64,000 bases of DNA from a virus, in the IMG/VR virus record IMGVR_UViG_3300045125_000165; one strand, written 5' to 3'. Both the position numbers and the translations under genes were made by a program. Numbering within the stretch: the stretch's first letter is position 1; the number at the start of each line of letters is the position of its first letter. Positions 25,986 through 56,881 of this stretch are shown here, piece after piece. The notes beneath the pieces are model-generated. The model was given only the letters and a program-made list of their open reading frames with translations, searched no databases and was not told where the DNA came from.

Positions 25986-26028
25986 CCCCACGAAAGGCAC
26001 TCCACAAAGGGACATCTTCATTTTAGCA
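25986..26028 (-). promoter_or_regulatory. late-gene leader motif copy F
   Basis: TG-C-TAAAAT, TCC/GGA hairpin, GAGTGCCTTTCGTGGGG. Confidence 0.8.
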
Positions 26029-27132
26029 TCAACGCCAATACCAACCCTGACCATAATCGCAGCCCAGATCTTGCCATATCTTGAGTTGAGTTTCTGTTTC
26101 GATGCACTCCGCGATCGCTTCTAGCCCCAGTCCATGCAGAATATTAATAAACTCAGCCATGACTAACTGAGTAGAGCGATCGCCTAAATGTTGGCTGAAC
26201 CAACCATCAATTTTGATTTTGAAAAATCCAGTGTGCAGATGGCCCAGCATTTGCAATAGCTGAATCAATGAGCTATGCCCTTGCCCGAAATCATCAAGTA
26301 AAACGCCATAGCCAAATAACTGCAACTTCTCAAGATAGGCAGAATCAAACGGTTTTCTCTCTGTGATTTCAAGATAAATTCGGGCGCGATCGCTAACCCA
26401 TCCAATCTCGGATAGTAACCCAAAGAACGTAGATGATTGCAGAGACAATGGCGAGATATTGACAGACACCCATGTATCGCGCCTACGAGCTTCTAACACG
26501 CCTTGCCTTACTACAAAAGAGCAGATCTGCGCCATTAAGCTCGGTTCTTCTTCACATGCTGGTATCCATTCCAAAGGAGCAATCCTACCCGTTGCGGATG
26601 CTGCCATCGGATTAGCCCTTCATGCCCTGCGATCGCGCCACTTTTCAAGCAAACAATCGGTTCATATTCTAAATAAAATTCTTTTTGTTGTAGCGCCAAT
26701 AAGATATCTGTTTTTAGCTCTGGCGTGAGTTTTAGATTGGCAACTTCTCGTAATTTTAGAAGCTCTGTAATGTCAACCGATTGGCTTAACAAAAACTGCA
26801 AAGCCCCATCGGGGTTGCGGATTGCAGCAACCATTTCATAGGCAGAGCATATATTCTGGTCTTTGCGGATATACCTTTTGTGTACCGAGAATTGATGGCG
26901 ATCGCCTCGTCGCAATATCAAATATCAATGCTGATTCTTGAAGTAAGTCTTCTGGATGTGTCAAATCTTGCCATCGGTAATTACAAAGCTCTTCTTCGGT
27001 ATAGCAAAGTGATTCGCACAATGAATTGTTGACCATTACAAACTTACCAGTAGTGGATACAATCGCAATCCCTATAGGTGAATTGATAAAAGTTTTCTTC
27101 CAGAGTTCACCTAAACGGTGTAGAGAGTTCAT
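26029..27132 (-). CDS. PAS-EAL c-di-GMP phosphodiesterase (2 frameshifts)
   Basis: PAS (SPIGIAIV..WQDLTHPED); EAL: YEP, EGLIRW, VSVNIS, LEITE, DDFG, KID, AECIET, GQG. Confidence 0.88.
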
Positions 27133-27194
27133 ATCTAGGTGAGAATAGAGTACACTAACGGAGGTTAAGATTGAGAGAAAACTAAGAGTAAATC

Positions 27195-27386
27195 ATGACT
27201 CAAAACTTTAAAAGCAATGACGATCTCGCAAAAGAACGGCGATACAAGATTGAAAAACAAGGAGCAAATCACCGTGCATTCACTCGTATCTACAATTACC
27301 CCAAAAACAACCCGTATCGTCCAGAATCGATAGAACATACATGGTTCGAGATTGGATACACAGCAGAAGAATTAATAAGCGGATAA
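27195..27386 (+). CDS. hypothetical protein
   Basis: 63-aa ATG ORF. Confidence 0.5.
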   Translation: MTQNFKSNDDLAKERRYKIEKQGANHRAFTRIYNYPKNNPYRPESIEHTWFEIGYTAEELISG

Positions 27387-27438
27387 TTCATGCAGCCACT
27401 ATTCCGTTTAGGCGACATCAGCGCAATATGCTTTGATT

Positions 27439-27965
27439 TTAACCGTTTTGCCGTTCTTTCATTTTTAATACTGTGAATATATCTTTTAATGTCGATTGAA
27501 CGGTTAGTAGATTCTCATTAATCCTTGCTAGTTCGTCTTTAATTGCAGCAATTTCTGCTTTTTGATCATAGACTACATCCCATAGTTGCTTGTTGTCATC
27601 CAAATGTTTTGCGACAAAAGTTCTAGATACTTCTTGAAGTTGATTAGAAGTCCGATCTAAGGTGCTAGCAACGATCTTGGAGTCATCTTTTGCCCGATCA
27701 ATAAAAAACTGAGAGAGCTTTTTTTGCTCTTCCAATTCTTGCTTTTGCTCTTCTAATTTTTGATCTACTTCTTTTTGCCTAGCATCGATCGCGCTATTCC
27801 CAAATCTCTCTAAAAGCTTTGAAACGACCGCCCAACCCCCGCGCTAACAACTAATCCACCCACGACAATACCGCCGCTTTCGGCGATCGCTGATGCCGAA
27901 GTCTTGTTAGGGTTTTCGGCGATCGTGGCTTTAGTTTCGGTAGTGTTTTGGGCAAAAAGTTGCAT
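27439..27965 (-). CDS. membrane-anchored coiled-coil protein (possible lysis accessory; frameshifted)
   Basis: MQLFAQN..GGIVVGGLVVSAGVG|WAVVSKLL transmembrane segment, then a coiled coil. Confidence 0.45.
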
Positions 27966-27967
27966 AA

Positions 27968-28426
27968 CTATTCCTCCAAATCGCTAAGTAGCACTGGTGT
28001 TAACCCATGATCGGCATAGGGCGGCTGATATACCGTAGGTTGCCAATTAGGATCAGGTTCTCCCGCGATTACTTCGGCGATCGCCGCCTCCAAAATAGTA
28101 ATTGTTGCGGGGCTTAATAAGAGGTTGTTATCCTTATCTACAGCCCCAACCAAATTATCAACGTCTAGCGCCACATCTTCTAATTGTCCTTTGCTAATAT
28201 TGGCAAGTAGGGATTCATAAGTTCCCTGTAGTTGATTTTGGATGATACTTCGATCTTTTCTTGCGATCGTTTTTGATGCTTCTGTGAAATTCACGCGCTT
28301 AGGTACTGTCGGTTGGGGTGCTGGGTTTGCGTGCAAGTATGGAGTATTTGCATACTCGACAATTTGTTGATCACTCCATTCAGGATGATCATTGCGAATC
28401 TGTACAATAAATTCTGTTTTGTTCAT
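27968..28426 (-). CDS. putative tail fibre assembly-type protein
   Basis: Follows fibre-like genes; C-terminal EPDPNWQP. Confidence 0.5.
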   Translation of the reverse strand: MNKTEFIVQIRNDHPEWSDQQIVEYANTPYLHANPAPQPTVPKRVNFTEASKTIARKDRSIIQNQLQGTYESLLANISKGQLEDVALDVDNLVGAVDKDNNLLLSPATITILEAAIAEVIAGEPDPNWQPTVYQPPYADHGLTPVLLSDLEE

Positions 28427-28428
28427 AA

Positions 28429-29247
28429 TTACCTCCTAGGTGGTTGTACATAATATGGATGCGTTGATATTAATGGGATTTTCCATCGCCATGCCCAAAT
28501 ACCCTCTATTAATTGCTGTGTATTGGTCGTGATTCCCCCTGCAATAATAGCTATTTCCCCAAATCGACAAACAGCAGGATAGCCAATTGTTGAAGGCGCG
28601 ACAAAAAGCTCAGCAAAAAGAATCCCCGAAAATGCGCTTGAGGGGAAACTCGTATCACTAGCAGTACTTATCAATACCCCATTTTGTGTAATCCTCCATC
28701 CTGTTGAATTTTTCTCGTAAACATGGATTACAGGGGTGTTTGGTATTACAGGAGAGCCATTACCTAGCCACACATCTGCATTAGTACCTCCCCATCCCAA
28801 TCCGTCAGAGGACAAACTCCCTTGGCTAAATACCCCCCATCTAATTCCAGAAGTATTGATAGATTGGTTTGATCCAAGTCCTGCTGCATATCTTCTATTG
28901 CCATCCGTGGCAGGTGTTGTTACCGCCATAAAAGTTATGTCTTGCTGCCCATTCAGCGCTGAGCAGAGAAACGACATAAATTTAGTTCCATCAGAATCAA
29001 CAGATCTATAGCCATTGATTCCCGAATTGTTTAGCGTTGGTTGAAATCCAGTAGTTGCTTGAACTAAATTTACACCGTTGCCACTGACATCATTTATTCC
29101 AGAAACGCCAGTGGCAAGACTGAAGCTCGAAACCCTAGCGGCATCAGGATGTAAGCTCCACCATGCAGCCAAAGAGGATGATGGCAATATATCTAAATCC
29201 CAAAGTCGAGAATTCCCTAATATAATTCGCTTTGTACTAGATCTCAT
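28429..29247 (-). CDS. LamG/ConA-like virion fibre protein
   Basis: LAAWW, NDVSGNGVNLVQAT..QPTL..GING, GEIAI, IEGIWAWRW. Confidence 0.7.
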   Translation of the reverse strand: MRSSTKRIILGNSRLWDLDILPSSSLAAWWSLHPDAARVSSFSLATGVSGINDVSGNGVNLVQATTGFQPTLNNSGINGYRSVDSDGTKFMSFLCSALNGQQDITFMAVTTPATDGNRRYAAGLGSNQSINTSGIRWGVFSQGSLSSDGLGWGGTNADVWLGNGSPVIPNTPVIHVYEKNSTGWRITQNGVLISTASDTSFPSSAFSGILFAELFVAPSTIGYPAVCRFGEIAIIAGGITTNTQQLIEGIWAWRWKIPLISTHPYYVQPPRR

Positions 29248-30330
29248 CTAAGCCTCGATCGCCATCGCGGTAATTGTTGCAGTCTCAGAGTTGGCTGTCG
29301 GAACCCATGTCCCCTCTGTAACTAAATAGCCAAATAACGACGTGCCACTTAGTTTGTAAAGCCTATTAATATTAGGGAGAGCTAGTACCAACGACCCACC
29401 ACCATTAGCACGCGCTGGTGTCCCCAACGAAATACCCGCAGGAGTGAGGATTGAAGCGCGATCGCCACTTGGCACGGAAAAAGCACCGTTGTCCGCAACC
29501 GCGCTGGGAGGTGTGACATTGTAAAGGAACAGTCTTAGATTCCCAATCCCTGATGGTAAATAAGTGATATTCATCAAAAAATGAATATCAGTAAGGAATA
29601 TAAAGCCTCCGTTATTACCAATATTTTGAAGCTCAAACGCTCCAAAAATTACGTCATTTGCGGCATAGGTAGTGGTGTTTGCCGCACGAGTCAACGTTGC
29701 AGAACTTTGGAAGGCATTGGATTTTTGCGTGACAGGTGCTGCAAGGCTGACAGGTTGCGTCACCCCACTGCCATCAACAGACAATCGATTAGAGATAACT
29801 GTCAGTCCTGATGGAAGCTTGGCATTGATTCCTGCGAGATTTCCACCTGATTCGAGCGCCAATAACGAGGTGTTTAAATTTACGCCTGCATTTGCTGTAA
29901 ATGAAGTATTGGTAAAAGTAAGATTTGGTACTGTGCCAATGTTTACCGTAGGAGTTGAAGCAAATGCAGGAAGGAATCCGCTAATACCAAAGCTGCTATT
30001 CGTGATTGCCCCGATCGCATTAGTACCCGCAGGAAGCGCCGTAGTAATCGACACATTAGAAGAAGAATTTACGCTCCCTAAATCCGATGGGTTTGGCGTT
30101 GCGATTACTGTGGCAGTTGTCGCATTGTAATATTCGGGTGGATTTGGCGAAATTTGCCGAAGGATAATAATATCGTTTGTGCTATATCCCGTACCATTGG
30201 CGATCGCCTTGAATATAGCAAGGGGAACAGTGCTACTGCCACCTGATCCAGAAGTCCTTAAAACACCATTACCCGCATCATAGACTTTATCAAGGATATC
30301 TCGCAGTCTTTGGATATTTAATCCTGCCAT
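29248..30330 (-). CDS. putative virion fibre / beta-rich structural protein
   Basis: Thr/Ser/Asn-rich; LPAGTNAIG and TRAANTTTYAANDV motifs. Confidence 0.6.
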   Translation of the reverse strand: MAGLNIQRLRDILDKVYDAGNGVLRTSGSGGSSTVPLAIFKAIANGTGYSTNDIIILRQISPNPPEYYNATTATVIATPNPSDLGSVNSSSNVSITTALPAGTNAIGAITNSSFGISGFLPAFASTPTVNIGTVPNLTFTNTSFTANAGVNLNTSLLALESGGNLAGINAKLPSGLTVISNRLSVDGSGVTQPVSLAAPVTQKSNAFQSSATLTRAANTTTYAANDVIFGAFELQNIGNNGGFIFLTDIHFLMNITYLPSGIGNLRLFLYNVTPPSAVADNGAFSVPSGDRASILTPAGISLGTPARANGGGSLVLALPNINRLYKLSGTSLFGYLVTEGTWVPTANSETATITAMAIEA

Positions 30331-30332
30331 TT

Positions 30333-30713
30333 TTATGCCCCCGTTGTTTCTTCGGAAGTAGTTTCAACATTCGCAGCAGAAAGCGTGATTTGAGTCCGTA
30401 AATCCATCCAGCTAATATCAGGAATTTTGTTAATCAAGTCTGGTAGATCGGCATAAGGTCTAGCTGCAATAATCTTCTTCGCGATCGCCACACCGACATT
30501 TGGTAACGACTGCAACTCTTTGATCGAAGCATTATTGATATCGATAGAGCCAGTTAGCTCAGTTAAATTTGCCAATGGTGAGGCGATCGCTTCCTGTACT
30601 TGATTGGGAGGATTAGTCGAGTACCCTTGGCGCAAATAATCGCCAATATAAGATCCAAAAACTTGTACGGGTTGCCCATCAAGAGAATATAAAATTGCCA
30701 TTGTTTTTACCAA
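30333..30713 (-). CDS. helix-hairpin-helix (ComEA-like) protein
   Basis: IDINNASIKELQSLPNVGVAIAKKII. Confidence 0.8.
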   Translation of the reverse strand: MVKTMAILYSLDGQPVQVFGSYIGDYLRQGYSTNPPNQVQEAIASPLANLTELTGSIDINNASIKELQSLPNVGVAIAKKIIAARPYADLPDLINKIPDISWMDLRTQITLSAANVETTSEETTGA

Positions 30714-30722
30714 AAAAATACT

Positions 30723-30759
30723 AAAAAGGATGGTAGACGCATAATGCGTCTACCATCCT
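30723..30759 (-). terminator. terminator after the capsid gene
   Basis: 16-bp inverted repeat AGGATGGTAGACGCAT/ATGCGTCTACCATCCT followed by a T run. Confidence 0.85.
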
Positions 30760-30767
30760 CAAACCTC

Positions 30768-32095
30768 TTACGCAGTAAGCAATAGACAGCCCTTTCTATG
30801 GTCTGAGAACTTAGCACCAAGGAGACTGTGGTAAGAAACAATCTGGCTCAAGGTTTTGTTGTCGTAAGCACCCTTGATTACAGAAATAGCGATCTTGGTA
30901 ACAGGATCAACTTGAGTTGCGCCAACAGCACCAGAATTAGCTTGAGGTAATGCAATTTCGCGAGAAGAAAGTAATAGCCCTTCCTTGTGAGAGGCAACGT
31001 TAACTGAGCCGATCGCAGGAATACGCAATTTGTCGTTAGCAACAAAGTCAGCAGCAGTCATCAAGATACCCGCAGGGCTATAGGGTACACCAGTGATAAC
31101 AGGTGCAGTTGTACCAGCGCTAGTGATTCGTAGAATTACCAAGTGAGCCTTGGGTACGTTGCCAGAGGAACGGATTTGTGCGATTTGACCAACTGCAACA
31201 CCACCAACACCAACGTTTAAAGCTGTACCAGCAGTAAGAGTGAAGTCAACCGCACCCAAAGCGGTAGTAGCAGATTTAGCGCTATCAAAGAACTTGGAAG
31301 TGTCTTGTGCGATCGAGGCAACGGGAAGCTCACCCTGAACACTTGTAGCCGTATCCATATCTGCAACTGCTTGCTGACCGTTGACGGTATTACAAGCTCC
31401 AGCATTGAATCCGTACACAGGCGCAAAAGTGTTATTCGCTAAGCCGTCAATAATCAGACGACCAGATCCTTCTTGTGCCGCCGCAAAACCAGTAACGCGA
31501 ACTGCATCACCTAAGAATGCGTTCTTCGCAACTGAACTCATAACGATGTAGCGATCGCTTGCAGGAACATTGGCAGTATCAAAAACCTGACCAGCGTTGC
31601 GAACTACTTGGTTGTCAAATGCAACGAAGTTGCCAGTTGCGTCAACGTTTGCCACAATCTGTACAGGAGCATTAGCAAAGTACTGAACTGCGCCGCTAGT
31701 GGCGGGAACTGTGCGGTATTTGCCATACATGTAGGCATCGTTGGGGACTGCAATACCTTTGGCAACTTGATCGCCAGTTTCTACGATGTACTTAGCAACA
31801 GCAGCAGGAGCGTCATGGCTGTAGATAGGAAAACCTTCAGTCCATAGACGTTCGAGAACTACGGTATCCGTTGCGTAGCTACCTTCGGTATAAGTGAATC
31901 CACCGCTATGGGATCAAAATCTTGCGCTAACTTGGTACGAGCAATACGAATTGTGACTTGTTCCCCCTGTTCAAATGAACCATTCTCATAATCGGTTGTG
32001 GCGATTAGAGGGAAGATTGACATTAAATTGAGAGTGGTTAATGCTTTGGCTGCAATACTTTGTTGCAGCAGTGCCGATGTGATAGGCGTAGCCAT
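30768..32095 (-). CDS. major capsid protein, P22-coat-like (frameshifted)
   Basis: About 440 aa when joined; GEQVTIRI, Ala/Gly/Val/Thr-rich body, C-terminal VSYHSLLGAK; next to a scaffold gene. Confidence 0.7.
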
Positions 32096-32120
32096 AGAGA
32101 TGCCAGTTCGCTTTTTTGTT

Positions 32121-32184
32121 CCCCACGAAAGGCACTCTCAAAATTTTGAGCAGCTTGAGACGCACTGCTCTACTAAATATAGCA
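32121..32184 (-). promoter_or_regulatory. late-gene leader motif copy A (capsid)
   Basis: TG-C-TATATT, P1 GAGCAG/CTGCTC, P2 TCTCAA/TTGAGA, then the box. Confidence 0.85.
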
Positions 32185-32288
32185 AATTTATTACCAATTA
32201 CTAAAACTAAAAACAAAAACTAGGTTTTTCAATTACCAAAACTGGTAAAACCTTGTAGGATATAGCTACAGACCTACGTTATAAGTGT

Positions 32289-33152
32289 ATGGCAACGACA
32301 AAAGAAGAAGACAACAACAATTATGTTACGCTTCCGCAACTAGAAGATCTTCTTGAAAGATGTATGCGCGATCGCGGGAAGATACAACTAGGGAAGTAAA
32401 TGGGGCGATCGCAGCCAATATCAACCCATTAACAAAAAGCCTTTCAGATATTTCTAAACAGCTTGAATCTTTTAAGGATCTATCCACTAAAGTTGAATCA
32501 ACTGATGCTCGTATGGCGGAAATCTTTACTGCTTTGCAAGCCCCTGACGATGAGCCGAATCAATCAACCGCCCCACAAGCTGTTGATGTTGAAACAATCA
32601 AGGCGCAAATTAAAGCGGAATTAGAAGAGTCGAACGCTAAGCAGTATTCCGATCGCATTCAAAGTTTGGAAAAGGCGATTGAGACCGAACGACAAGAGAA
32701 GGAGACTATCAGGACAGCAACAGATCGAAAGCGATCGCCGCAACAATCTGCTAGGAACACTGAAAAAGATTGCCCCTGAGTTAAATCTATTTCCAGATCA
32801 TGAAGAGATGGTCATGGAGAAACTAGCTAAGGACGGTGTTCTTAAGGTTGGTGAGGATGGTACATCATGGTTAGCCAAAACAAAACGTCCCGATCCTTTC
32901 ACTAAGCAAGTTGAGGAAGTAATCGTACCTGTTACCCCCGATATCCTGAAGTCAATCATTGCGGAGGGCTATTCCTACTATCAGCAACCTCGTGCTGGTG
33001 CTGGTGTTAATGCTGCCCCAACTCAGTCGTACTCGCCAACAAATCGCAAAGTTACGGATGCAACTACAGCAACGGATATTCAAGATGCCTTTAAGAAAGG
33101 TGATGACGCGATGTTGAATGAGATTGCGTCTTTGATTGTTCAAGGGGCTTAG
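32289..33152 (+). CDS. capsid scaffolding protein (frameshifted)
   Basis: Acidic coiled coil with C-terminal RAGAGVNAAP; divergent from the capsid gene. Confidence 0.6.
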
Positions 33153-33160
33153 TTTATAAC

Positions 33161-33206
33161 AAAAAGAGGTGCGATCGCCATAACAAGCGATCGCACCTCT
33201 CTTTTT
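33161..33206. terminator. bidirectional terminator built on two HIP1 sites
   Basis: AAAAAGAGGTGCGATCGC-N8-GCGATCGCACCTCTCTTTTT. Confidence 0.8.
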
Positions 33207-33207
33207 G

Positions 33208-33396
33208 TTATTCAGATTCAGTTGGCGAATGTTCAATTGGTTCAGGTTTAGCTTCAGTCGATCCAACTTCTTCGAGGTGGTCGATTAGGTCATAGGCTAT
33301 TACATCATCAGGATTGAGAGTAATCAACTCGCCTACAACCACAGGACGAAACCATTCAAGGGCGAAAGGCTCTAACACTTTGTACTGCACTTTCAT
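33208..33396 (-). CDS. small virion-associated protein
   Basis: Coupled to 33396-33785. Confidence 0.5.
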   Translation of the reverse strand: MKVQYKVLEPFALEWFRPVVVGELITLNPDDVIAYDLIDHLEEVGSTEAKPEPIEHSPTESE

Positions 33397-33785
33397 CAGC
33401 TATTTGCCCTCGCATCACCCGCCAAAGTATAGAAAACATCCAGATTAAGTGTGGAGCTAGTGCCAACGGTCTTAGGCGTGCCACCTGCGGCGATGGTAAA
33501 CGGTGCGGTCGTGGCAGACGCTAGATCTGTAGGATCATAGGTTGATGCTGCCAATGCTGAGTAATCGAGTTCAGCGATCGTTAATACTAGGTTCCCACCA
33601 GCATAGCCAGATGGGGTAATCAAAAAGCGTTTTTCTAGTCGGAGCGCAGAGTTTACCGTCGCGTAAACATCGAAGACAAAACGACCGTTTGCGGTGTCGT
33701 CGTATAGTTTTCCAGTTTGCGCGATCGCTTCGTTTAAGGTTGTTGCAGCTTTGGGACGCACCCAGTTAGCGGATGATAAAGCCAT
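33396..33785 (-). CDS. putative virion structural protein
   Basis: Thr/Ala-rich 129 aa after leader motif B. Confidence 0.55.
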   Translation of the reverse strand: MALSSANWVRPKAATTLNEAIAQTGKLYDDTANGRFVFDVYATVNSALRLEKRFLITPSGYAGGNLVLTIAELDYSALAASTYDPTDLASATTAPFTIAAGGTPKTVGTSSTLNLDVFYTLAGDARANS

Positions 33786-33812
33786 TTAGAGATACCAATT
33801 CGTTTCTTTGTT

Positions 33813-33877
33813 CCCCACGAAAGGCACTCTCAAAATTAGTAAGCAGTTTGAGACGCACTGCTGATTTAAATATACCA
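33813..33877 (-). promoter_or_regulatory. late-gene leader motif copy B
   Basis: TG-G-TATATT, P1 AGCAG/CTGCT, P2 TCTCAAA/TTTGAGA, then the box. Confidence 0.85.
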
Positions 33878-33907
33878 AATTTTGAGTTACGGGAATTGGT
33901 GATTTTT

Positions 33908-33972
33908 TGCTACAATCTACAAAGCAATGTGTCTCAGATTGCTTTGTTTTACTGAGAGTGCCTTTCGTGGGG
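33908..33972 (+). promoter_or_regulatory. late-gene leader motif copy G (tail tube)
   Basis: TG-C-TACAAT, P1 AAAGCAAT/ATTGCTTT, P2 TCTCAG/CTGAGA, then the box. Confidence 0.85.
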
Positions 33973-33995
33973 ATTTAGAATCACAGGCATCTCCC

Positions 33996-34788
33996 ATGAC
34001 TGAGTTATACGCAAATAGAATATGGAAACCACAAATTTCAGGGTTTTCCGTTTACTACAACAACACTTTGCGAGTATGTGGATACTCCCAAAAGTGCAGA
34101 ATTAGATTTTGGATTTAAAGAACTTGTCCGCAGTTCGACTTCTTCTCAAGGTGTTGAAGTTGATGTTAGCCGCGAGATTCAGGCAGAAAAACCCAAGTTC
34201 ACCGTTGAAATGGGTGGATTAACTGAAGAAGTATGGGAAATTATGTCGGGTCGCCTATGGCAAGATTCGGCTTCTGTTGCCACTTTCTACGGTCGCAACC
34301 GTGATGCACTTAACAAAACATCGTGGTCTGCTGATGCTGCGGGTTTTGAAGGCTATGGCATTGTTGCTGATGCTGTTGGCTATGCTGCCATTTTTAAGAA
34401 TGGGCGATCAATCCCACTGACTCAGCAAACCTATGGCACATTCAACCCAAGCACTTTGTTGTCCTTTGCCGTTGGCGCGAACGGCGCAATGTTGTTCAGT
34501 GATGATACTTTGGCATATCAGAAGTCTTGGAAGGTTCCCCAGAATTTAAGCAATGTGCGTACCATGAGTTCTACTAGGGTTGCCAACGTTGGGGTAATCC
34601 TAAACATCATTGATGCTTCGCTTTATGTTTATCGTTTTTCTGCTCCAAATTGTCAAACAATCGTCGATTCCGCCTCAATTGCGTTCAACAGCGAGACCGT
34701 AAAAATACCTATGGCTGTACAGTTTGATGGATCTAGCTGCCGTCCGTATGACCTAGTAGCAACTGGTTTGAAAGTCACCCCATGTTAA
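33996..34788 (+). CDS. putative major tail tube protein (frameshift near the 5' end)
   Basis: MTELYANRIW... joins ORF 34078; beta-rich ~260 aa followed by a chaperone-like gene. Confidence 0.55.
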
Positions 34789-42316: not shown

Positions 42317-42791
42317 TAAATTTCAAGCCTTTAAGTAGCCACAAATCGCCGCCTTGGAACGTAACAAATTGCGGTGTTTCGATCTTGAGGTAAGTATTGA
42401 AAACGTAATAGCCAAGCGTTGCACCACTCAATGTAATTGTTGAGTCTGGGACGAGAGTGCGTGGATGGAATGAGGCTTCTGTACTGTCTAGATACTCATT
42501 TTCGTCTTGAAGCCAAAAAATCCTTGATGAGTCTTGTTTGTAAGCAGCTATATATCTACCTAGCAATGCTCGATCAGCACTGGTTATTAATGAGTTTGGC
42601 TCCCACAGGTATGTTGATTTAAAGTTGAGATTCCCTTTGTCAGCTATCCCCCCTGTCGCGTTCCTTTCCCCTGCATTGGGATAATCTGCGGGTTCTCTGT
42701 TACATAGCTTCTCCCCTGCAGGCACTTTATCCAAAAGCAAATTTGGAAAGCCTGATGTGCCTAAAGTGATTTTTCTGGTGGGACAGGTCAT
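42303..42791 (-). CDS. putative distal-tail-like protein
   Basis: First gene after leader C, heading the tail-tip operon. Confidence 0.45.
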   Translation of the reverse strand: MTCPTRKITLGTSGFPNLLLDKVPAGEKLCNREPADYPNAGERNATGGIADKGNLNFKSTYLWEPNSLITSADRALLGRYIAAYKQDSSRIFWLQDENEYLDSTEASFHPRTLVPDSTITLSGATLGYYVFNTYLKIETPQFVTFQGGDLWLLKGLKFIEAV

Positions 42792-42816
42792 CTCAAGAGA
42801 GATCTATTCTGCGTTT

Positions 42817-42880
42817 CCCCACGAAAGGCACTCTCAAAAATTTTGACAGCCTGAGACGTGCTGTTGGTCTAATCATACCA
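42817..42880 (-). promoter_or_regulatory. late-gene leader motif copy C
   Basis: TG-G-TATGAT, P1 ACAGC/GCTGT, P2 TCTCA/TGAGA, then the box. Confidence 0.85.
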
Positions 42881-44034: not shown

Positions 44035-47000
44035 TATTGGTTAACCCTCAGCAATTGCTGCTGTAGTCGGTACATTTGAAGATCGGGACGCTCAACATTA
44101 TTGAATACAGGGCTTAGCACCTGATTAGGTCTACTCAAGCGATCGCCGATCTGACTCAACAAACTATTTTGTAATTTCATTTCTGCTAATAGCTCAGTAT
44201 TACTAAACCGCAAAGCCGAAGCGATCGCGCCAAAGTTCAAGTTAGGCAAATTACCAGAATCAAACACACCTAGCGATCCAAGCTGTTTAGTTTCCGAGGC
44301 ATTGTGTACCCATGAAGGGGCATCAAATTCGATTGTGCGCTCTCCATTGGGTAAAAGTGTAGTCTCTAACGTTTGCAGATTTGTAACAGCTTCCTGACCC
44401 TTTTCGTTGACAGTTACGGGGGTATCTGTGGGGGCTAGTCCACCAGTAAATAAACCGAGTGGATTTCTTGCTGCTCTACGTTGTGCATCCTGACTGCGAT
44501 TAACCCTAACTGCATAAGCCTTAGCCTCTGCTCCGTTTGGATTATCGATAATTTTGGCGTACAGGTCATCGGAATTAGTCGCAGGATCTTGATTGCGTAG
44601 GTTCTCGATCTGTCCTTGGCGATCGGCATTTTTACCTGCATCGCTATTATTAGCGATCGCCTATCCACTACACCAAAAATCTGATTTTGCTTTGCGATGT
44701 TGGCATTTTTAGCTGTGGTTGCAGCATTAAATCCCTTGATTGCAGCATTTTCGTTATCGACTTGTTGGGGGATATTGGCTTTTTGTGTGGATTGCTGTTG
44801 CGCTTGTTGCTGTGCCTGCACTGCTTCAGCTTGTTTCTGTTTAGCAGCTTGCTCCTCACGTGATTTAAAGATTGGGTTTTCGCTAAGTTTTTTGGCTTGG
44901 GCAATGACTTCCTGTAACCCTGCTTTGGTTGCCTTGAGTGAGTCTGGTAAGGATGCAAAATTATCCTTAATTTGCTGACTGGTGTTCTCAAAGCCACCGC
45001 GCCATCAGCAACACTGGCTAGATCTTGTTTGCGATCGTCCAATACTTTTTGGACTTCTTCGGGACTCTTTGCTTCGGCAAGTTTTTTCTCGGCTTCAGAG
45101 TTTTTAGCGATCGCAGGTGTAGCTACTTCCTTAGCTTTAATGGCTTCAGAGGATTGCAGCCCAACCAAACCTTTGTCTGCACCCTCAATTCGACTCTTGA
45201 AGGCAGCACTACTTTGCTCTTGGTTAAATGTTTCACGCTCTGATTTTTGGGTTTCTTTCAAGGTTTGACGTTGCAAAGCGCCAATTTGCTTATTATTTTT
45301 GACCTGCTCATCGGTAAGCGCTACCAACTCTAAGGCACTGGCGATCGCCTCTTTATTGCCAGACTCCTTAGCTCGAATCAGTGCGATCTTCGCTTCAATT
45401 TGTAGCTGTCTATCCCTGATTTGCGATTGCTGGATCTGTACTTCAAGTTCACGTTTAGCATTGGCTTGATCTTGCTCAAATTTACGGGCTTTGAGTTCCA
45501 AGACCTTTTGTTCTTGATCGTAAATTTGACGGGCAAGGCTTAGCTCACTTTGCCCCGCACTGACACCTAGCTCTGCCAATCTTTGACGGGTGAGACGTTC
45601 TTTCTCTTTGTCAATGGCTGCCTGTTCAGCTGCTTTCGCTTGTTCGGCGGCGGCATCTTCGGCGGCGAACTGTGCCTCTTTTTGCTTTTTAGCTTCCTCA
45701 TCCAATCCTTTAAGCTGAGTTTTGCGTTGTGCATCCCTCTGTTTTTGTTCCTCAGCAAGCGATTTTTCGCGACCAGCCCTCAACAATTCATCAACTTCTT
45801 TCAATGCTGACAATCGATTTTCTGCACCCTTCAACTGTGCATCAGCGATCGCGCTTTGCAACTTAACCTGTGCATTGAGTAATGAGTTCTGTGATTCGAG
45901 TAATTTAACTACGCGCTCGCTGGTGGTTTTCTCGATTTCCAGCGCATTGATCTTTTGCTCATACAGGATTTTATTTCGGGCGATCAGGTTGTCAGTCGCA
46001 TCGAGGTTTAGTTTGGCGATATCTGCCTCTTGACTGCCAATCTTGAGAATTAGCTCCTCACGCTCTTTCTGGGAACCAACAAAGTTAGCTAGATTCGTTT
46101 TGTCGAACTCTAAAACGCGCCGCTTATCTGCCAGTTCGCTCTCGATGGTCTGCTTTTTGATTAGCAGGGTTCGCTCTTCAAGTTGGCGATCGTTCTCAAA
46201 GCCGCCTAGCTTCAATGCTTGGATGCCCGCCTGTGTCGCTAGTTCGGCTTTCTTGCGGAGGTCTGCGTTGGCTGATAACTCGCGATCGAGTCCTGCTCGT
46301 AGCGCGGCTACTTGCTTCTGGATCTCCTCAGTTTGGATTTTGGAAAGTTCTGCTACAGCTTTTTTGCGCTGAGTAATCAGATCACGTTCAACATCAGAAC
46401 CTGCGATCGCAAACTCCCAGCTTTTCATCAATGCCTTTAATTTCGAGGTTTTTGGCTTCCTCCTTGAGCGCTGGAAGTCTTTTTAATGCCATCAATTTCA
46501 GATAAAGATCCAGCTTCAATTTGAGCTTGAATAGCAGCTTGCTTGGTGTTATTACTGTCGGCTTGGGCTTTGTTTTCTTTGTCAATGATCGCTGTAGCAG
46601 CCTTTGCAGCAGCAACGCGATCCTCCTTGAGTAAAAATTCTCCCTCACTAATCTCTTTGAGTCGCTTCAAACCTTCTTCTTTGCTTCGAGCGCCTAACTC
46701 AATCTCTTCTTGAAGTACGCCCACAAAGGTTTTTGCTTGCGTGACTGCACGGTTTGTCCCTTTCTTGAACTCATCATAGTAATTGTTGCTTACAGTATTA
46801 AACTGCTCTTTAAGAGTGCCTTGGTTCGCCGCCTTTTGACCTGCGATCGTGGTTTCATCAAGATTGTTTACAATGTCTTGTAGGAACTGTTTAAGTCGCT
46901 TGATTTCTTCCTTGGCTTCATCTTCATTGAGTTTAAAAACAGCAAAAGATTTATTGTTGTCAACAGCATCCTGTAAATCCTTGATCTGCCTTGGAATATC

Positions 47001-49004
47001 TGTCGCCGTTTCAGCCAACAGTTTTTTGTAACCTTCAAGCTGTTTTCTACCTTCTTCTGTAATAGTTCCAGCCTTTTGCTGATTTTGTAGTTCCTTTAGC
47101 CTTTTAGTGAATCTGCCAATAGTTGAACCCGTATTATCGACACTGTTTTTCCAAGCGTCTACAGTTTTCTTGGAAGCGTCAACAGCTACGGTGAAAGCCA
47201 CTACAGCCCCGATCGCCGCCACAGCAGCCAAAGCAACAAATGCAGCATTAACACTCAGTAAGGCGGCGCGAAGCGCTGCTAATGCACTACCCGCACTGGA
47301 AACCGAAGCGGCAAATTGAACTTGCAAGATTGAGATAAACGCCCGAATACTACCGATCAATCCAGATGCGATCGGATCTACAAATCCCATTCGGAAAGCC
47401 AACAATGTAAAGGCTGTAGTTGCACCATTTACAGCTAAGGCTAGTAAACCCACCGTAACAACAAAACGCCCCGCACCCGTATTTAGCCCTTGCAGCAAAG
47501 GAACTATAGTTACATTTAAGATTGCGGCGATCGCAGACAACGCAAGTAACACCCCATTCAAGGCAACCCCTAGCAATGGCACAGATGTTTGAGCGATCGT
47601 GCCTATGGCAGTAAATAGCCCTTGAATCGTGGGATAAACTGAGCTAAAACAGTCCCAACCTGTGTTGAGATAGCAACAAGTCCAGAGCTTAGATTAGAAA
47701 CAAAAGCTTCAATCTGAGGTTGTGCCGCAGTTAGGCTGTCATAAACTTTTGTCAATTGCTCAACTACAGGAGGTAAAACAACCTTACCAAAGCTTTCTTG
47801 TAATCTCTGGAAAAGCTCAACGATATTACTGGTGACACCCCCAAAAGTTTTAGCCATCAGAGATTGGGCTGAAGTTAGGGCTTCCGTTTTCTTTAACAAG
47901 AATTCTACAAGAGTACCTTTCGCTTTTTCTTGCTGTATCTGGGTGTTAGTAATGGCGAGACTCTTTGCCAAAGCTGAGTTTTGGTCGATAGTTCCCTGAA
48001 GAATAGATGTAATTTCTTGTCTGGCTCCCGCCAACCTCCGCAAGAAAGCCGAGGGCAGACCCAATGCACTGAATGAGCCGCCGAACGCCTTGGTTAGTTT
48101 TGCGGCATCGTCTAAGCTAGCCCCGATATTCCCGATTTCACCTGAAATTATGAAAAACGAATTTAATAGGTCGTCAGATGTGATATTTGCAAGTTCGAGG
48201 CTATCGCGTCTTACTTGAGCTGATCGCCTTGTTAACTGAAGGTGCTAACTTATTAATTTTTTCTAGTGGGTCAGCAATGCTTTTGCCTCCAACCTGAATA
48301 TCATTAGTGGCGACTAAAGCTCCCCGAATACTGATTAGCTGCTGTTCTAGCTGGATCGAACTACCAACTAAACTTTGAAAAGTGCTATTTGCTATTCCTG
48401 CAAAATTCTGGACAGAAAATACTAAGTTATTAAATCCAAAAGCGATTCCTTGAATACCACCTAATAAGCTTTTGCTAGAGGCTTCTTGCTGTTGTGCGGA
48501 TTGTTTTGTGGCGTTAGCTACTCTTGCTTCCAGCCACTTCTCGCTGAGCAGTTGCCTTAAGAATATTTTCATTAGCGATCGCAACCTTAGCCGCATCAAC
48601 TTGTTGTTGAGCGACTGATTTTTGAGTGGCTTGAGCTAGTTTTTCCTGAAAAGTTTGAGTCTGCGCGATCGCCTGTGCAATTTTTTGCTGAGAGACGACT
48701 TGTTGATCCGCCGATTTTTGTTGTGTTGCCGCCCGACCAATCGCAGCTTGTTCTAGTTGCTGCTCTTTGATCAGGGTTTTCGCCGCTTCTTGGTTCGCTC
48801 TTTCTTGAGTAATTTGAGTTTTGGCGATCGCCTGTGCCAACTTCTCTTGCTCAATTGCAACTTTAGAGAAGCCAGAAGTCAGCGAGACATTAAAAACTGT
48901 CGCAGTTTTCGCAAGCTGATTTAACTCGTTGAGGAGGCTTGTTAAATCATTTTTAGCTGCGAAGCGTCTGCGGAAAGCTTTAATTCGAGTTTACGATCTG
49001 CCAT
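44034..49004 (-). CDS. tail tape measure protein (split into about 7 ORFs)
   Basis: Start MADRKLELKLSADAS; Ala-rich coiled coils, central hydrophobic region, TFGGVTSNI motif; about 1650 codons. Confidence 0.85.
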
Positions 49005-49027
49005 TGGTGAGAACCATGCTTAGGCTT

Positions 49028-49069
49028 CCCACGAAAGGCACTCGCAAAACTTGCGACTAGACTATTTTA
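49028..49069 (-). promoter_or_regulatory. late-gene leader motif copy D (tape measure)
   Basis: TAAAAT, TCGCAA/TTGCGA hairpin, GAGTGCCTTTCGTGGG. Confidence 0.8.
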
Positions 49070-51306: not shown

Positions 51307-51342
51307 TTCTTTAATCTTTTTTAATTACCTTTGACACTTTTA

Positions 51343-51372: not shown

Positions 51373-51512
51373 CTACTTTCTTAAAATAGATTTAGCCTAA
51401 ATGCAGAGCGCCCGATCGCCCGTTCCTAGTTTCGGAAAATGGTAAAATATTTATAGCGATCGCAGTTTTGAAGGGTGCGATCGCGTAACACAATTACTGA
51501 ACAGGAGTAATC

Positions 51513-51917: not shown

Positions 51918-53279
51918 ATGAGAATAAAATTCAGCAGATTCAAAATAATTATGTAGCGGCGATCGCCGCAGTGAATCAAATCGGCGAAGCACTTGGCTTG
52001 ACTCGCAACAAAGATTTGACCACGATTTTACAGGCGATCGCCGATCTTAAAGTCCAAAACAGTGCCAATGCCAATTTAGCGGAACACTGCGATCGTTGCA
52101 TCCAAAAATAGCACCCAAAGCATTGAAGTGATCGCCGCCCAACTTGGAATCGACTTTAATGGGAATACTGAGCAGATCCATGAGGCGATCGAGGATCTTC
52201 AAAGAGAACCAAACAGAGTAGAACATTTAAAGCTGCTAAATGAACTCAAGGATGTTGATGATTTTTTGGCAGATCTCTCTAGGCAATTAAAATTATCCCG
52301 TCCAAAAAATCGTGAAGCAATAGTTGAAGCGATCGCAGAGTTGCAAGTCAAGGCGAAATTTAAGCCAAATGATGAAGAAAAAACGGAGCTAATTAATGAG
52401 ATCCGAGAAGCTAATGAATTGATTGCCGCGATCGCCATTGAACTCAATCTAAAAGACGATTTTGAAAGCATTGATTTAATCCGACAAGTCAAAGCTGAGC
52501 GACAGGCTAAAGAATGTGCGATGCTTGCTGCTAAAGAAAGGGGCGCAAGTTTAGACGCGATCGCGGAACAGTTGGGAGTTAGCTTTGATGGTGATGCAGC
52601 CAAGATTTATGACGCGATCGCTTATCTCAAGGATTCCAATCTAAAAATGCTTAAAGATAGGGTTAAGCCTGTGAAGATCAATGTCTTGCCTTATTTATTG
52701 GGAGAAGCGCTTAACCTTGGCAATGTTTTTGATGATGACGACGTACTAGAGGCGATCGCTAATCTCAAGCACTCGTTACAACTTAGCCAAAAGGAAGTTG
52801 ATGAACTGCAAGAAAAATCGCGGGACAGAGAAATCGTATTGTTACACTTGAAGATGAGTTAGCGATCGCTTAGAAATCGCCCTATTCCTCAAAAAAATTA
52901 ATTGGTCAGGTTAAAACTTTAAAGACGGAATTAGAGGCGATCGCTAATCAGCTTGGTTTTAATACATTTCATTCTGGACAAATATCTGATTGGATAAAAA
53001 GAATTGCAAGGAAAGCCTCAATCATCGAAAACACCGATATTGGCGAACTGCGCTCCGGAGCGTGATCATTATCGCGATATTCTGGACAAACTTTGCGATC
53101 GGCTAAACGTATCAAATATTGAAGCACTAGAACACGCTGCCAAGTATCAAGAAATGGATTTAGATTTTACCGCACAGCATAGTGAAGATTTGCGCGGTAA
53201 GTTGGTATCCTCACAGGCAATGAACCTCACATACTTGAATCGCATTGTTGAGCTTGAGAATGAGGTCGCGATCGCTTAA
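51908..53279 (+). CDS. helical repeat / coiled-coil protein (frameshifted)
   Basis: Repeats IAxQLGxxFxG..IxEAIxxL every ~45-50 aa across three ORFs. Confidence 0.6.
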
Positions 53280-53487
53280 GGAGCCTCAACCAACTACTGT
53301 TGCTAGAAGGCGATCGCCATGAATACAAAATTAAATTCCTTGAAAATGGTGAAATTGTCCGAGCCAAACTTGGCGAACCTTTTCCCGATGAAGATCAAGA
53401 AGTATGTGGCGATCGGCCTAACCAATGCCGAGCTTATCCAAATCATCGCGATCGCTGATCAAGCCTTAATTCTTAACCGTTTTTCTG

Positions 53488-54003
53488 TTAGGCTTCGTCT
53501 TCTGGTTCAGTCTCAACAGAAGCTTGGAGTTCATCTATGAAGTTATCGCGATCGCTATCGGGTAGCATTGAAGTTAGTCGCCAGACGGCATCTTCGTGGT
53601 ATAGCTGGCGATCGCCCAACATATTACCAGTCGCCAAGTCTTGATATTCTTCTTGAGCCTCAACGCCGCCTTTAATGCATTGCTGAGCCAGATTGAAATT
53701 ATCCGTTGCCAAGTCTTTGATAATCTCAACCTCAGTGGCTCCGATTACACCATCTTCGATATTGCCAAGGTCAAAATATTCTCTAGTTACTGGTACATCG
53801 CCAAATAGGTGCTTAATTCGTTCTCCAATGGTATCGACTGCTTCGACTAGTGCTTTGTACTCAACGTCAAGGACTAATTCGTGCAAGGCGGCAAAGTTAA
53901 TCCCCTTTGTGTTTTGGTGGTACTGATGGGTTTTTAACTGTAATAGCGCTGTATTGGCGGCGATCGGGCGCAAAATTTCAACTACGGGACTTGGTTTAGG
54001 CAT
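53488..54003 (-). CDS. dps: Dps / ferritin-like protein
   Basis: KTHQYHQN..G.NFAALHEL..E....VDTIGERI; ferroxidase His/His/Asp/Glu retained. Confidence 0.85.
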   Translation of the reverse strand: MPKPSPVVEILRPIAANTALLQLKTHQYHQNTKGINFAALHELVLDVEYKALVEAVDTIGERIKHLFGDVPVTREYFDLGNIEDGVIGATEVEIIKDLATDNFNLAQQCIKGGVEAQEEYQDLATGNMLGDRQLYHEDAVWRLTSMLPDSDRDNFIDELQASVETEPEDEA

Positions 54004-54253
54004 TGTTTTGTTTGAATAGAGATTTGTTGAATACTACTGTTATGACTGGTGCTATTACCTCAAACACCTCAATCCGATCTGCTTCTTTATCCGATCGCGT
54101 AGGCTCACCCAAGCCTAGTTTGATTTTTGTGGGGTGTTGGCAGATTCAATACGCGATCACCATTACTGATTTTTAATTGAGGCATTGCTTTGTAAGCGAG
54201 AGGACTGCTTATATTATTACCTGTTCCGGGAAGAGGAACACAAAAATCGATTC

Positions 54254-56818
54254 TCAGATAATGCTAGGTAGCGCACGTTGCGAGTGATGAGCAATCTGCT
54301 TAGGGACAAATATTTGGTAAACCATATAACCAAAGGCATCGGATAGATGCGATCGCGAGACTATCCGTTTTGTCGATACCTTGATCTTTATCCCAAGACA
54401 ACTGCTCCAAATCTTTAGTAAGTTCAGGCACAACATCCATCGCAAGGAAGCAACGATTATTTTTGAATATCAAATTGACTGCATGAGTCCGATGGCGCAC
54501 AGGGGGTTAGCATCGGGGATATGCTTATGGATTGACATACCCAAAGGCTTCAACTCTTCAAAGATGATTTGCCATGCAGACATCTTCGAGACAGCGCTCT
54601 TGGCCCTGCCTGACGCATCACCGTACAGATGGATATCCATATTGTTAGGCTTACCAGCTTTGATAAAATCACGAATATCGACAATCAACTCCCATAAATC
54701 AGCATCAAGCATGAAAAATTCCTTGAATACATGAAGTTCGTTCGCTCTCTTTTGAGCCAATACTGCAACACATGGGGCGGCGTTGAAGTCGAATGCGATG
54801 TGTAATGGGAGATTAGGATCGTAGGCGATCGCCTCTGCATCAATGCCAACAAGCGTGTGATTATTGCGACTAAAGTATTTGTAAATCTTGCCACTTGCCG
54901 CATCAATAAACGCCCCTTCAAGTTCCTGTTGCGCCATTTCATCGGTATAATTTGCCTTTAGACCCGCAACATAGGACTCATCTAAGTGAGTGTTTTCTAA
55001 ACTTAGGAAGTTCAGCATCCAATAGAAGTTTTTAATCTCTTCTGTTCTCGCGGGATCGCCAAATCGGTAATACAGCCAATTAAAGCCATTGGGTGAAGTC
55101 GTGATAATCCCTTGGCATTTTTGACCGTTTGAGCTTCGCATACGACCATCCACAACTTGAAACGCTGATTCTGGTGCATACGCCGCTTCATCTGCCCATA
55201 TCCTTTGAAATTCTGCACCCCGACCTGTTTGCGATTTTCCCAAATATGCAGACATACTGGAAACATGCCAGAGCATTCGGTTTTCGCCTAGATAGAAATA
55301 TCTGTTTTGCGAATTTGCGATCTTTACCGCAGTTAATTCGACAGAGCCATGCCACGGATCGACGGGAATGTTGTATTCAACACAGGCTTTAAATAATCCG
55401 ACTAATGTTGATTTCCATAATTGTTGAAACGAGTTGGAAACTATTAAGCCTTGACAAACATCTGCATACCAAAAAGATTGTAATATCGTCCAGATTGCGC
55501 CACTGTGGGTTTTGCCGCTATTATGATGCCAAATTCCATTAGCTAAATAATGGTTTCCTTTTGGTACATGAAGGTCATAAAAATCATCGTATCTAACATA
55601 TTCGATCGCCTCAATTACATCCCAATATGAGTTAGAATTAGAGTAATTACCACTGTTTACGGATGACCAAATAGATGAGTTTAGATTTACGTTTTTCGAG
55701 GGAAGAGTGGATTCAGATGATGAGTGATCATTCGAGTATTCGCTCAATAGCAAGGTCTTTAGGAGTTCAACATGGGAGTGTATCTCGCGTACTTGAAAAG
55801 CTTGGTCTTCACGTTGCGAAAGCAAACATTGCAGCGAGAAAAGTAGATTACAAAGCGATCGCTGAACATTACTTGAAAACAAAGAACCTTGGTCAAACAG
55901 GGCAGTTTTTTGGGGTAGATGATAGAACCGTTTCAAAGGCTTGCAAAGAAGTTGGGATAACCCCAAAAGATTTTGTTCTTGAGAGCAAAAATCAATTTGG
56001 TTTGCCAATGAACGAGATAATTCAGCGCTACAAAGATGGAGAAACTTGTATAGAGCTTGGTAAAGCTTTTGGTGTTGACGATGAGGTGATTCGCCGTAGG
56101 TTGGTGAGGAGAGGTGTCGAGATGCGAAGTGTCGGCTGCCGCACCCCTGAGCTAAACTCGCAATGGGCTGGCGGCAAAGGGTATCCTGATGAGCATAAAA
56201 AAGTGAGAAAGATTGTTGAATCCATTCTTGGGAGAAAACTGAAATCGGTCGAGGTAATACATCACCACAATGAGAATCCCCTTGACCACGACTTAGACAA
56301 TCTTTGGATATTCCCTTCCCCTTCGCATCACGCTCGTTATCATGGCAAGCTACGAGCGATCCGCAACCAAGGTGTCGAAGTTGATGCCAGCCAGTGGGCG
56401 AAAGCATTTGATGCTGTTCCGTTACGATCACTGATTTCCCGATCGCAAAGTCACACGATAAAGATTTGCTTGCCCTTTGACATACGCAGGAGTAGCCCAA
56501 GTTTCGCCTATCAATGTCTGTACTTTGATAGGCGATCGCGGTAAGGTCTTTTACTGGAATCCCGTTGATTTCAGTCTCACCCGCCAAACATCCAATTCCC
56601 CCAATTGCACTCAACCATCGTGGGGGCGGCATTTCGGGCTTTTCTTCTTGCAGTGGAAACCAAGTAAAGAATTGGGTTTGCCCCCTACCAGTTGGCTTAA
56701 ATCCTTTTTCTGGATCAAATAAGCAATGCTCAAGATTCTCAAGTTTTTGCGCTTGCAAGAGATCTTGCGCGCGATCGCCTCGTATTCGAGTAAAGCCCCC
56801 ATTTGACCATAAACGCAA
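54254..56818 (-). CDS. terminase large subunit, intein-containing (start uncertain; 3' frameshifts)
   Basis: Walker A GGIG|SGKT, Walker B WADEA, ITTSP, EN..L..Y, ELEGAF, DFN, YGDASG, DAFGY. Confidence 0.93.
55520..56590 (-). mobile_element. intein (~357 aa) in TerL Walker A
   Basis: Starts CLAGET, block B VTEQH, block F FYDLHVPKGNHYLANG, ends WHHN before Ser+1. Confidence 0.95.
55717..56544 (+). CDS. HNH endonuclease with HTH repeats, nested antisense inside the TerL intein
   Basis: Several HTH-like segments, NSQWAGG, EHKKV..ILGRKL..EVIHHHNENPLDHDLDNL..H..YH. Confidence 0.88.
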   Translation: MMSDHSSIRSIARSLGVQHGSVSRVLEKLGLHVAKANIAARKVDYKAIAEHYLKTKNLGQTGQFFGVDDRTVSKACKEVGITPKDFVLESKNQFGLPMNEIIQRYKDGETCIELGKAFGVDDEVIRRRLVRRGVEMRSVGCRTPELNSQWAGGKGYPDEHKKVRKIVESILGRKLKSVEVIHHHNENPLDHDLDNLWIFPSPSHHARYHGKLRAIRNQGVEVDASQWAKAFDAVPLRSLISRSQSHTIKICLPFDIRRSSPSFAYQCLYFDRRSR

Positions 56819-56838
56819 AATGCCCTTGTGTGATTACT

Positions 56839-56881
56839 CCCCACTAAAGGCACTCGCGGCGATCGCGACACTTCTATATTA
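56839..56881 (-). promoter_or_regulatory. late-gene leader motif copy E (terminase)
   Basis: TAATAT, TCGCG/CGCGA hairpin, GAGTGCCTTTAGTGGGG. Confidence 0.8.

Follow-up and report, generated by a model that had tools for sequence, protein, structure and literature searches.

A predicted structured leader RNA recurring before virion genes of a cyanophage-like genome and before toxin modules of Pseudanabaena-order bacteria

Why should the same sixteen letters stand ahead of seven separate virion-gene units in one phage genome, and are they read as DNA or as RNA? This question is raised by a stretch of 64,000 nucleotides from the IMG/VR virus record IMGVR_UViG_3300045125_000165 (the whole stretch analysed is called the window hereafter), which looks like a cyanophage-like genome of the Pseudanabaena type. 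Judged from its letters, the repeated word is the core of a folded leader RNA of ~60-90 bases, which is predicted to be transcribed from its own promoter in each copy and stands before the seven units. The 16-mer, GAGTGCCTTTMGTGGG, matches the window exactly at seven places (zero mismatches over its full length; six copies on the minus strand, one on the plus strand), as against 0.05 copies expected from dinucleotide-preserving shuffles, none of 100 of which reaches seven. These copies had been noticed in a preliminary description of the DNA, whose coordinates fit a 17-mer with an extra G. All seven lie upstream of an open reading frame (ORF) and share its orientation, and in six of them an ATG follows the 16-mer at 23-28 nt, which bears out the near-constant spacing described earlier. 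The start of the large terminase (TerL) gene had been called uncertain, and it is indeed unusual: the long ORF opens at a TTG (56818), and the neighbouring ATGs are out of frame.

Each unit can be divided into a -10 hexamer, up to three helices (P1, P2 and P3) and the box, i.e. the repeated word itself; copies with P2 are termed long forms, those without it short forms. The units of the window are the following:

25961..26025, minus strand: leader unit, short form (3-bp P1, UCC/GGA), 16-mer at 25987-26002, before a 125-aa gene at 25586-25963
32093..32181, minus strand: leader unit of the major capsid gene (capsid by phrog_283 and homologues), long form, 16-mer at 32122-32137
33783..33874, minus strand: leader unit, long form, 16-mer at 33814-33829, before a 129-aa gene of unknown function at 33396-33785
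33911..33998, plus strand: leader unit, long form, divergent from the preceding one, 16-mer at 33956-33971, before a gene of 263 aa in the intact homologue that reads 40 aa + 236 aa in the window
42789..42877, minus strand: leader unit, long form, 16-mer at 42818-42833, before an operon of tail-type genes running from 42791 down to ~37566
49002..49069, minus strand: leader unit, short form (P1 UCGCAA/UUGCGA, no P2), 16-mer at 49028-49043, before the ORFs of a fragmented long coiled-coil gene from 49004 down to 44668 (putative label: probable tape measure)
56808..56881, minus strand: leader unit, short form (P1 UCGCG/CGCGA on a HIP1 site), 16-mer at 56840-56855, before TerL with its intein at 54470-56818 (TTG start)

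The anatomy of a long form can be followed on the capsid leader:

32176-32181, minus strand: -10 hexamer TATATT, with TG
32164-32170 paired with 32148-32154, minus strand: P2
32156-32160 paired with 32136-32140, minus strand: P1
32121-32137, minus strand: box
32107-32111, minus strand: partner of the box in the upper part of P3 (P3b)
32101-32104, minus strand: partner of the box in the lower part of P3 (P3a)
32093-32095, minus strand: AUG

A morphogenesis gene had originally been named behind every copy. The labels for the capsid (phrog_283) and TerL (phrog_2 and Terminase_6N, plus the intein) stand, whereas head completion, tail tube, virion protein and tape measure obtained no family match. 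The operon orthologous to the tail-type genes in the related phage contig L160 does contain a tail-fibre PHROG match.

Twenty-four further copies were found in related uncultured phage contigs and in seven genomes of the Pseudanabaena order, which brings the total to 31. Of the phage contigs, which were reached through capsid homologues of 68-96% identity, L160 has four copies, L164, L167 and L168 have three apiece, and L165, L171, L169 and L170 have a single one. The element occupies the same places in their DNA, and the homologues confirm the start codons of the window.

Comparison of these copies indicates that P2 is the best-supported helix. Among 23 distinct sequences five of the six pairs of this hairpin are changed on both sides, and 94.8% of the cells are paired, versus 34-47% when the partner strand is slid, values that 0 of 500 shuffles reach; these are counts of alignment cells, not of evolutionary events, and the sequences are related. 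P2 is present in four window copies, as had been proposed for a second covarying helix, and absent from the six short-form copies of the whole set. P1, the helix that ends at the box, takes two shapes: in long forms bases of the P2 loop pair with bases just before the box, and in short forms it is a plain 5' hairpin. In the window it reads UCUCA/UGAGA, UCGCAA/UUGCGA, UCGCG/CGCGA or UCC/GGA, which are the pairs listed beforehand, and the orthologue of the 25961..26025 leader in L160 has UCG/CGA. Compensatory changes are thus found in P1 as well: the short forms have six different complementary sequences, and the long forms are invariant save for UCUCU/AGAGA in two host copies and a U-G pair in five others. 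With the UCUCA strand of P1 sitting in the P2 loop, the long forms would adopt an H-type pseudoknot, a class assigned by geometry alone (P2 6-7 bp, L1 3-4 nt, P1 5 bp, L2 0-1 nt, L3 7-10 nt), and both helices are 92-98% paired in the 23 sequences. In P2, P1 and P3 alike, G-U pairs are confined to the sense strand. This restriction and the covariation argue against a pure DNA word, and the compensatory changes in three helices sustain the view that the element is a structured RNA.

The third helix involves the box itself. One hairpin follows P1 directly; this is P3, whose 5' strand is mostly formed by the box and which, in the phage leaders, closes at a distance of 1-4 nt upstream of the AUG. 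It consists of GAG/CUC at the base, P3a (UGCC/GGCA), P3b (UUNGU/RCNAA) and an A-rich apical loop beginning with GGGG. Folding of the stretch from the box to the AUG yields the same hairpin in most phage leaders, and it is recovered in minimum-energy folds; P3 is 91-94% paired, versus 35-55% with the partner slid. The free box position N and its partner appear in all four Watson-Crick forms (UA 4, CG 3, AU 2, GC 1, UG 1), and box position 4 pairs as UA or AU. In the capsid leaders of relatives with 68-70% capsid identity, the box has diverged to GAAUGCC, four bases and GCGGGA, and UUGCG/CGCAA and UGCG/CGCA are found where the window has UUCGU/GCGAA, amounting to three compensatory pairs in the inner helix relative to the window. 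Capsid relatives of 47% and 36% identity keep an 8-bp hairpin (GGGAUGCC/GGCAUCCC, GGAUGUCC/GGACAUCC), which ends 2-3 nt before the AUG. A helix between the box and the region before the start codon, first put forward as an alternative state, finds support in these compensatory changes; what has to be amended is the picture of the box as a free single strand, since it mostly serves as the 5' strand of P3. The region adjoining the AUG is pyrimidine-rich, with no AGGAG or other Shine-Dalgarno sequence beside the AUG.

P1 and the base of P3 have the GA(GAG) bases in common. As the two compete for just 2-5 bases, a switch between P1 and the P3 base is possible; the RNA switch of the preliminary description comes down to this overlap of 2-5 nt, and toggling as such is unsupported. 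A small-molecule riboswitch, which would bind for example a nucleotide second messenger with the pseudoknot as aptamer, is very improbable. It would be in keeping with a compact pseudoknot bearing invariant unpaired bases, with a GAGAG that could pair either with the P2 loop or with the tract before the AUG, and with a phage gene for an EAL-domain protein adjoining one leader. A riboswitch, however, should have a conserved core in all members, and here P2 is missing from six copies that nevertheless keep the box, the relative L162 has a hairpin inserted inside the box (between GCC and UGGGAG), and in L168 and L171 the central UUUN of the box is replaced en bloc by AUAA in every copy. Moreover, no metabolite logic unites capsid, terminase, tail and toxin genes, the known riboswitch models do not match, and specific support for the riboswitch proposal was not obtained.

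Several other roles of the folded region were considered and rejected. RNase III usually needs about two helical turns, and P3 has only ~12 bp; a self-cleaving ribozyme finds no model match, and the short forms have no pseudoknot. Between the box and the 3' end of 16S rRNA, only GGGG against CCUC could pair (compared by eye with the anti-Shine-Dalgarno sequence), with no extended complementarity. Nor is the missing Shine-Dalgarno sequence a special mark of the leader genes, many other genes of the window being likewise without one.

Upstream, a TAnnnT hexamer precedes all 31 copies at a two-valued distance from the box, 17-20 or 31-42 nt (in the window 17-20 nt for short forms and 38-39 nt for long forms). 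The extended -10 dinucleotide TG accompanies 23 of the 31 hexamers and five of the seven in the window, exactly as first described, and no recognisable -35 was found in the 31 copies, nor was any listed by a scan for -35/-10 pairs. By sequence, TGnTAnnnT at a fixed distance with a dispensable -35 corresponds to an extended -10 promoter of the sigma-70 type, and the site is a predicted promoter of this kind. In all six short forms exactly 7 nt lie between the hexamer and G-UC, the UC of which opens P1 at the foot of the hairpin. This constant gap fits a transcript that begins at the stem, and we infer that the transcription start coincides with the foot of the 5'-terminal stem or is no more than a few bases away from it.

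How can the observed repeats, helices, promoter geometry and gene contexts be brought together? The helices and their fixed placement with respect to both the -10 hexamer and the AUG lead us to a reading which we consider somewhat likelier to be right than wrong, namely that of a promoter-plus-leader cassette acting after transcription, through protection of the 5' end and a start region kept in a defined fold. The double fixation points to a role at the 5' end and in translation initiation rather than in elongation. Each copy would be a portable cassette of promoter and 5' untranslated region, equipped with an extended -10 and no -35, and its transcript would start at or near the foot of a 5'-terminal stem, which is plain P1 in the short forms and the P1/P2 pseudoknot in the long forms. 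This terminal stem would protect the 5' end of the mRNA, and P3 would hold the start region, devoid of a Shine-Dalgarno sequence, in a fold that sets the translation level of the first gene of the unit. The invariant bases (G-UC...GA, GCC and GUGGGG) suggest a reader, and they would most likely be recognized by a trans factor, be it a phage or host protein or the ribosome. The effects on stability and translation, as well as the existence of the reader, are predictions from sequence. If they hold, promoter, 5' stem or pseudoknot and start-enclosing hairpin would represent an unusually clear anatomy that is reused across the morphogenesis module of a freshwater cyanophage. They would also offer a handle on late-gene control in cyanophages without a known late sigma factor or antiterminator, and would bear on the initiation of Shine-Dalgarno-less messages in cyanobacteria.

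Several points weigh against the cassette. The major capsid gene has its start region covered by a hairpin of -11 to -15 kcal/mol, which would be expected to hinder translation, so that there must be an activator, unless the fold is exploited in a way not apparent here. A search of the window ORFs with Pfam and PHROGs revealed no candidate RNA-binding regulator, and public RNA runs yielded only short low-depth contigs, which are uninformative on transcription starts. P3 is also heterogeneous: leaders of the L168/L171 type and some host copies pair the pyrimidine tract before the AUG with GGGG and not with GAGAG/UGCC. The covariation of P3 derives from few, related sequences, with one of two alignments fitted to the model, and the folding z-scores are modest, reaching -2.5 and -2.3 in two copies and staying between 0 and -1.7 in the rest.

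Elements of the cassette have counterparts in well-studied systems. Com acting on the mom mRNA of phage Mu and genes 38/25 of phage T4 exemplify structured start regions that decide on translation, and the ompA leader carries a 5'-terminal stem-loop that stabilizes the mRNA. As in the Mu and T4 cases, the leader has a hairpin at or directly next to the start region, to which a phage factor or the fold itself would give access; in contrast to these single-gene cases, a single leader fold serves seven units as well as host toxin genes. The likeness to ompA is a stem that begins almost at the 5' end, one or two bases in at most, as predicted here from the 7-nt spacing to the -10 hexamer in the six short forms. 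A stabilizer alone, however, would leave the invariant GCC and GUGGGG and the fixed distance to the AUG unexplained.

A position directly behind a promoter also calls to mind processive antitermination of the HK022 put type, where the nascent leader would bind RNA polymerase and carry it through terminators within the virion operons. The put RNA acts on RNA polymerase, is found at early promoters, has no pseudoknot and needs no fixed distance to a start codon. Like put, the leader forms two adjacent stems in the nascent transcript directly downstream of a promoter, would work in cis and occurs in more than one copy per phage, and its copies head long operons. Furthermore, a strong terminator-like hairpin (16 bp and a T run; 30726-30760, minus strand) stands directly after the capsid gene, and the head genes behind it are without a leader of their own until 25987 and would therefore need read-through. 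Yet partial termination after capsid genes is common without any special antitermination, and in the hosts the leader precedes operons of two genes or just one small gene. The leader holds no terminator, and its end is fixed at 1-4 nt from the AUG, which an RNA that modifies polymerase would not need. With a pseudoknot and a fixed AUG distance it also differs in build from put, with which it was compared by description, the leaders having matched no Rfam family by sequence or model. Antitermination, as first envisaged in a nut/put-like form, thus gains no specific support and is very unlikely.

The promoter-plus-leader cassette appears to be new and of limited distribution. Searched with Rfam 15 at gathering thresholds, the whole window gave only tRNA and an abiF RNA, and with permissive settings 31900-34200 and the host locus L159 6000-8000 yielded just chance-level matches far below gathering scores. 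No published description of the element was found in the literature, and by these comparisons it is an uncatalogued structured RNA, as supposed from the start. Searches with a 20-mer and with a structured pattern found it in Pseudanabaena-type genomes only. A covariance model of the long form (R1) detected one copy in each of seven of 71 genomes of the Pseudanabaena order, and among 151 evenly sampled cyanobacterial genomes only the reference G001 proved to have the element, all else being weak chance matches. Capsid relatives of 35-51% identity contain no full element, and some hold only the start-occluding hairpin. The structured pattern gave nothing in virus scans and two chance matches in GC-rich DNA in a metagenome scan. 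Exact matches of the 16-mer in genome and virus collections were mostly single chance matches in unrelated phyla, and box matches with one mismatch within the order were rejected, because all of them lie in coding DNA and have neither promoter nor stem. The range is narrow, comprising one phage clade and seven of the 71 genomes of one order, which limits the general importance of the element.

The host copies show that the element does not mark virion units only, as had been thought. Seven Pseudanabaena-order genomes carry one copy each, always at the head of a unit of the toxin-immunity or toxin-antitoxin type, and this link between the leader and host toxin modules is new. The units are:

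Host unit 1: MafB19-like deaminase and Imm1
Host unit 2: DUF4258 and DUF2283, two species, same locus
Host unit 3: 119-aa protein and partner resembling EF-Tu domain 3 (a pair resembling an ADP-ribosyltransferase (ART) and its partner), two species
Host unit 4: small hydrophobic (membrane) peptide, two species

In the third kind (L133, 600-1482, minus strand, and its orthologue in L149) the 119-aa protein is followed by a 171-aa protein with a weak match to EF-Tu domain 3. Among the language-model neighbours of the 119-aa protein are ADP-ribosyltransferase toxins, some of them targeting EF-Tu, which gives no more than a lead; the pair may represent a toxin and an immunity protein that mimics its target. 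The leaders of syntenic species pairs differ by compatible or compensatory changes, and this retention in synteny argues for selection in the host, without a capsid-bearing prophage of this family. A capsid homologue was found in none of the 71 genomes of the order, and hence the host copies do not belong to resident prophages of this phage family.

Do phage and host copies, then, respond to a common signal? The leader might be the response element of a phage late regulator, a phage-encoded factor that would unfold or stabilize it late in infection and thereby turn on all virion units together after transcription, and Pseudanabaena toxin modules might have captured it as an abortive-infection trigger or decoy, a proposal that we regard as unlikely. 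It would account for the same leader before seven virion units and four unrelated kinds of host toxin modules in an order whose 71 genomes hold no prophage of the family, and for the occlusion of the start region by P3. The promoters look constitutive, and timing must accordingly come from elsewhere. Moreover, box variants are common to whole sets of copies within one phage (GAGAGCC in L164 and L167, GCC-AUAA-GUGGGG in L168 and L171), which hints at co-evolution. However, the variant copies lie within 1.8 kb, three per contig, and block inheritance or gene conversion could explain them, and in L160 both U and C are found at position 4 and both U and A at N, i.e. the "specificity" positions are loose. 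Toxin and immunity genes share one operon behind the leader, and joint induction need not kill; no regulator was found among the window ORFs, and the host toxin genes have no match in PADLOC. If true, the leader would be a natural sensor of a "phage-late signal" for abortive infection, with toxin modules triggered or titrated by infection. For the cassette proper, too, the four kinds of host modules would mean that one cis element ties phage late expression to toxin-antitoxin biology.

One host leader has been altered upstream. In Pseudanabaena minima Chao 2107 (L159, 7586-7675) a 90-nt insertion with a perfect hairpin of ~17 bp lies within the old -10 region of the leader and supplies a new TATAAT. 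A junction in a P. minima RNA contig at the edge of the leader proved to be this palindromic insertion. The same 90-nt element is abundant in a metatranscriptome (depth 29-113), which indicates that it is repeated, MITE-like or highly expressed.

The host copies bear on a further alternative, i.e. a DNA site for a phage protein, either an asymmetric operator (a roadblock resembling stoperators) or a promoter element, in which case the stems would be incidental. Identity over 16-17 bp in non-orthologous copies, the strict orientation and the box variants common within a genome would be expected of such a site, yet it is highly improbable. Instead of a conserved DNA word alone, P2, P1 and P3 exhibit changes of the RNA type, with G-U pairs on the sense strand only. 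The box lies ~15-45 nt downstream of the predicted start, the same element is maintained in the chromosomes of hosts without any phage of this family, and the neighbourhood of these promoters already contains another recurrent operator, which is palindromic. Cluster A mycobacteriophages have stoperators, DNA sites at which the repressor of a temperate phage binds (mentioned in PMC3203893). The leader sites resemble them in being asymmetric, oriented with transcription and numerous within transcribed DNA of a genome, and differ in RNA-type covariation and in their presence in host chromosomes without a detected prophage.

The nearest published case in kind, by analogy, is the SAS/ESAS of Cluster K mycobacteriophages, an asymmetric word with many copies per genome that is tied to start codons and whose function is unknown (Pope et al. 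2011, PMC3203893). SAS, a word of 13 bp, lies 3-7 bp upstream of the start, has an AGGAG (Shine-Dalgarno) core, precedes non-structural genes and is absent from most other phages; its authors leave open whether the reader is of host or phage origin, RNA or protein (PMC3203893). The leader word is likewise asymmetric, has one orientation and stands in many copies before the starts of unrelated genes. It differs from SAS by its distance of 23-28 nt from the AUG, the lack of AGGAG, its association with virion units, a promoter of its own for each copy and its occurrence in host chromosomes. Furthermore, the inverted repeats of ESAS do not covary as RNA, whereas the helices of the leader do.

The palindrome near the promoters is of ~23 bp (TTACCAnTT..GAAACTGGnAA type, near-perfect) and has more than 15 sites in the window, e.g. 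at 4596, 5229, 10429, 17195, 24251, 32248 (minus), 33902 (minus), 42955, 50118 and 57508. Several of these sites lie within ~100 nt upstream of leaders, and the motif, which is distinct from the RNA leader, probably serves a phage regulator as its DNA operator.

Apart from the leaders, the window contains many HIP1 sites, the head protein of phrog_283, a large terminase and a helicase each with an intein, Bro/ANT and KilA-N proteins and an IS200/IS605 element. Its capsid gene reads 78 + 320 aa, as against 442-453 aa in homologues, owing to a 1-nt deletion near 31910 (minus strand) seen relative to the 93% homologue. Other genes are likewise in pieces, including those for a DUF4942 methyltransferase, the helicase, the EAL protein, the 263-aa gene and the probable tape measure (split genes at 7968-9450, 14482-16813, 26029-27132, 33996-34788 and 44668-49004), which reflects either assembly errors or a decaying genome. 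An abiF RNA motif (RF03085; 43847-43883, plus strand; 49.3 bits versus a gathering score of 37) is placed between the leader of the tail operon and the end of the probable tape-measure gene, and neither of the two ORFs upstream of it encodes an Abi_2-type protein. The EAL-domain match (c-di-GMP phosphodiesterase type; 26535-26921, minus strand) belongs to a fragmented gene just upstream of the 25987 leader. Intein splicing domains are present in TerL (54470-56818, minus strand) and in the helicase (14482-16254, plus strand), both by Pfam PF14890 and the helicase also by PT-HINT.

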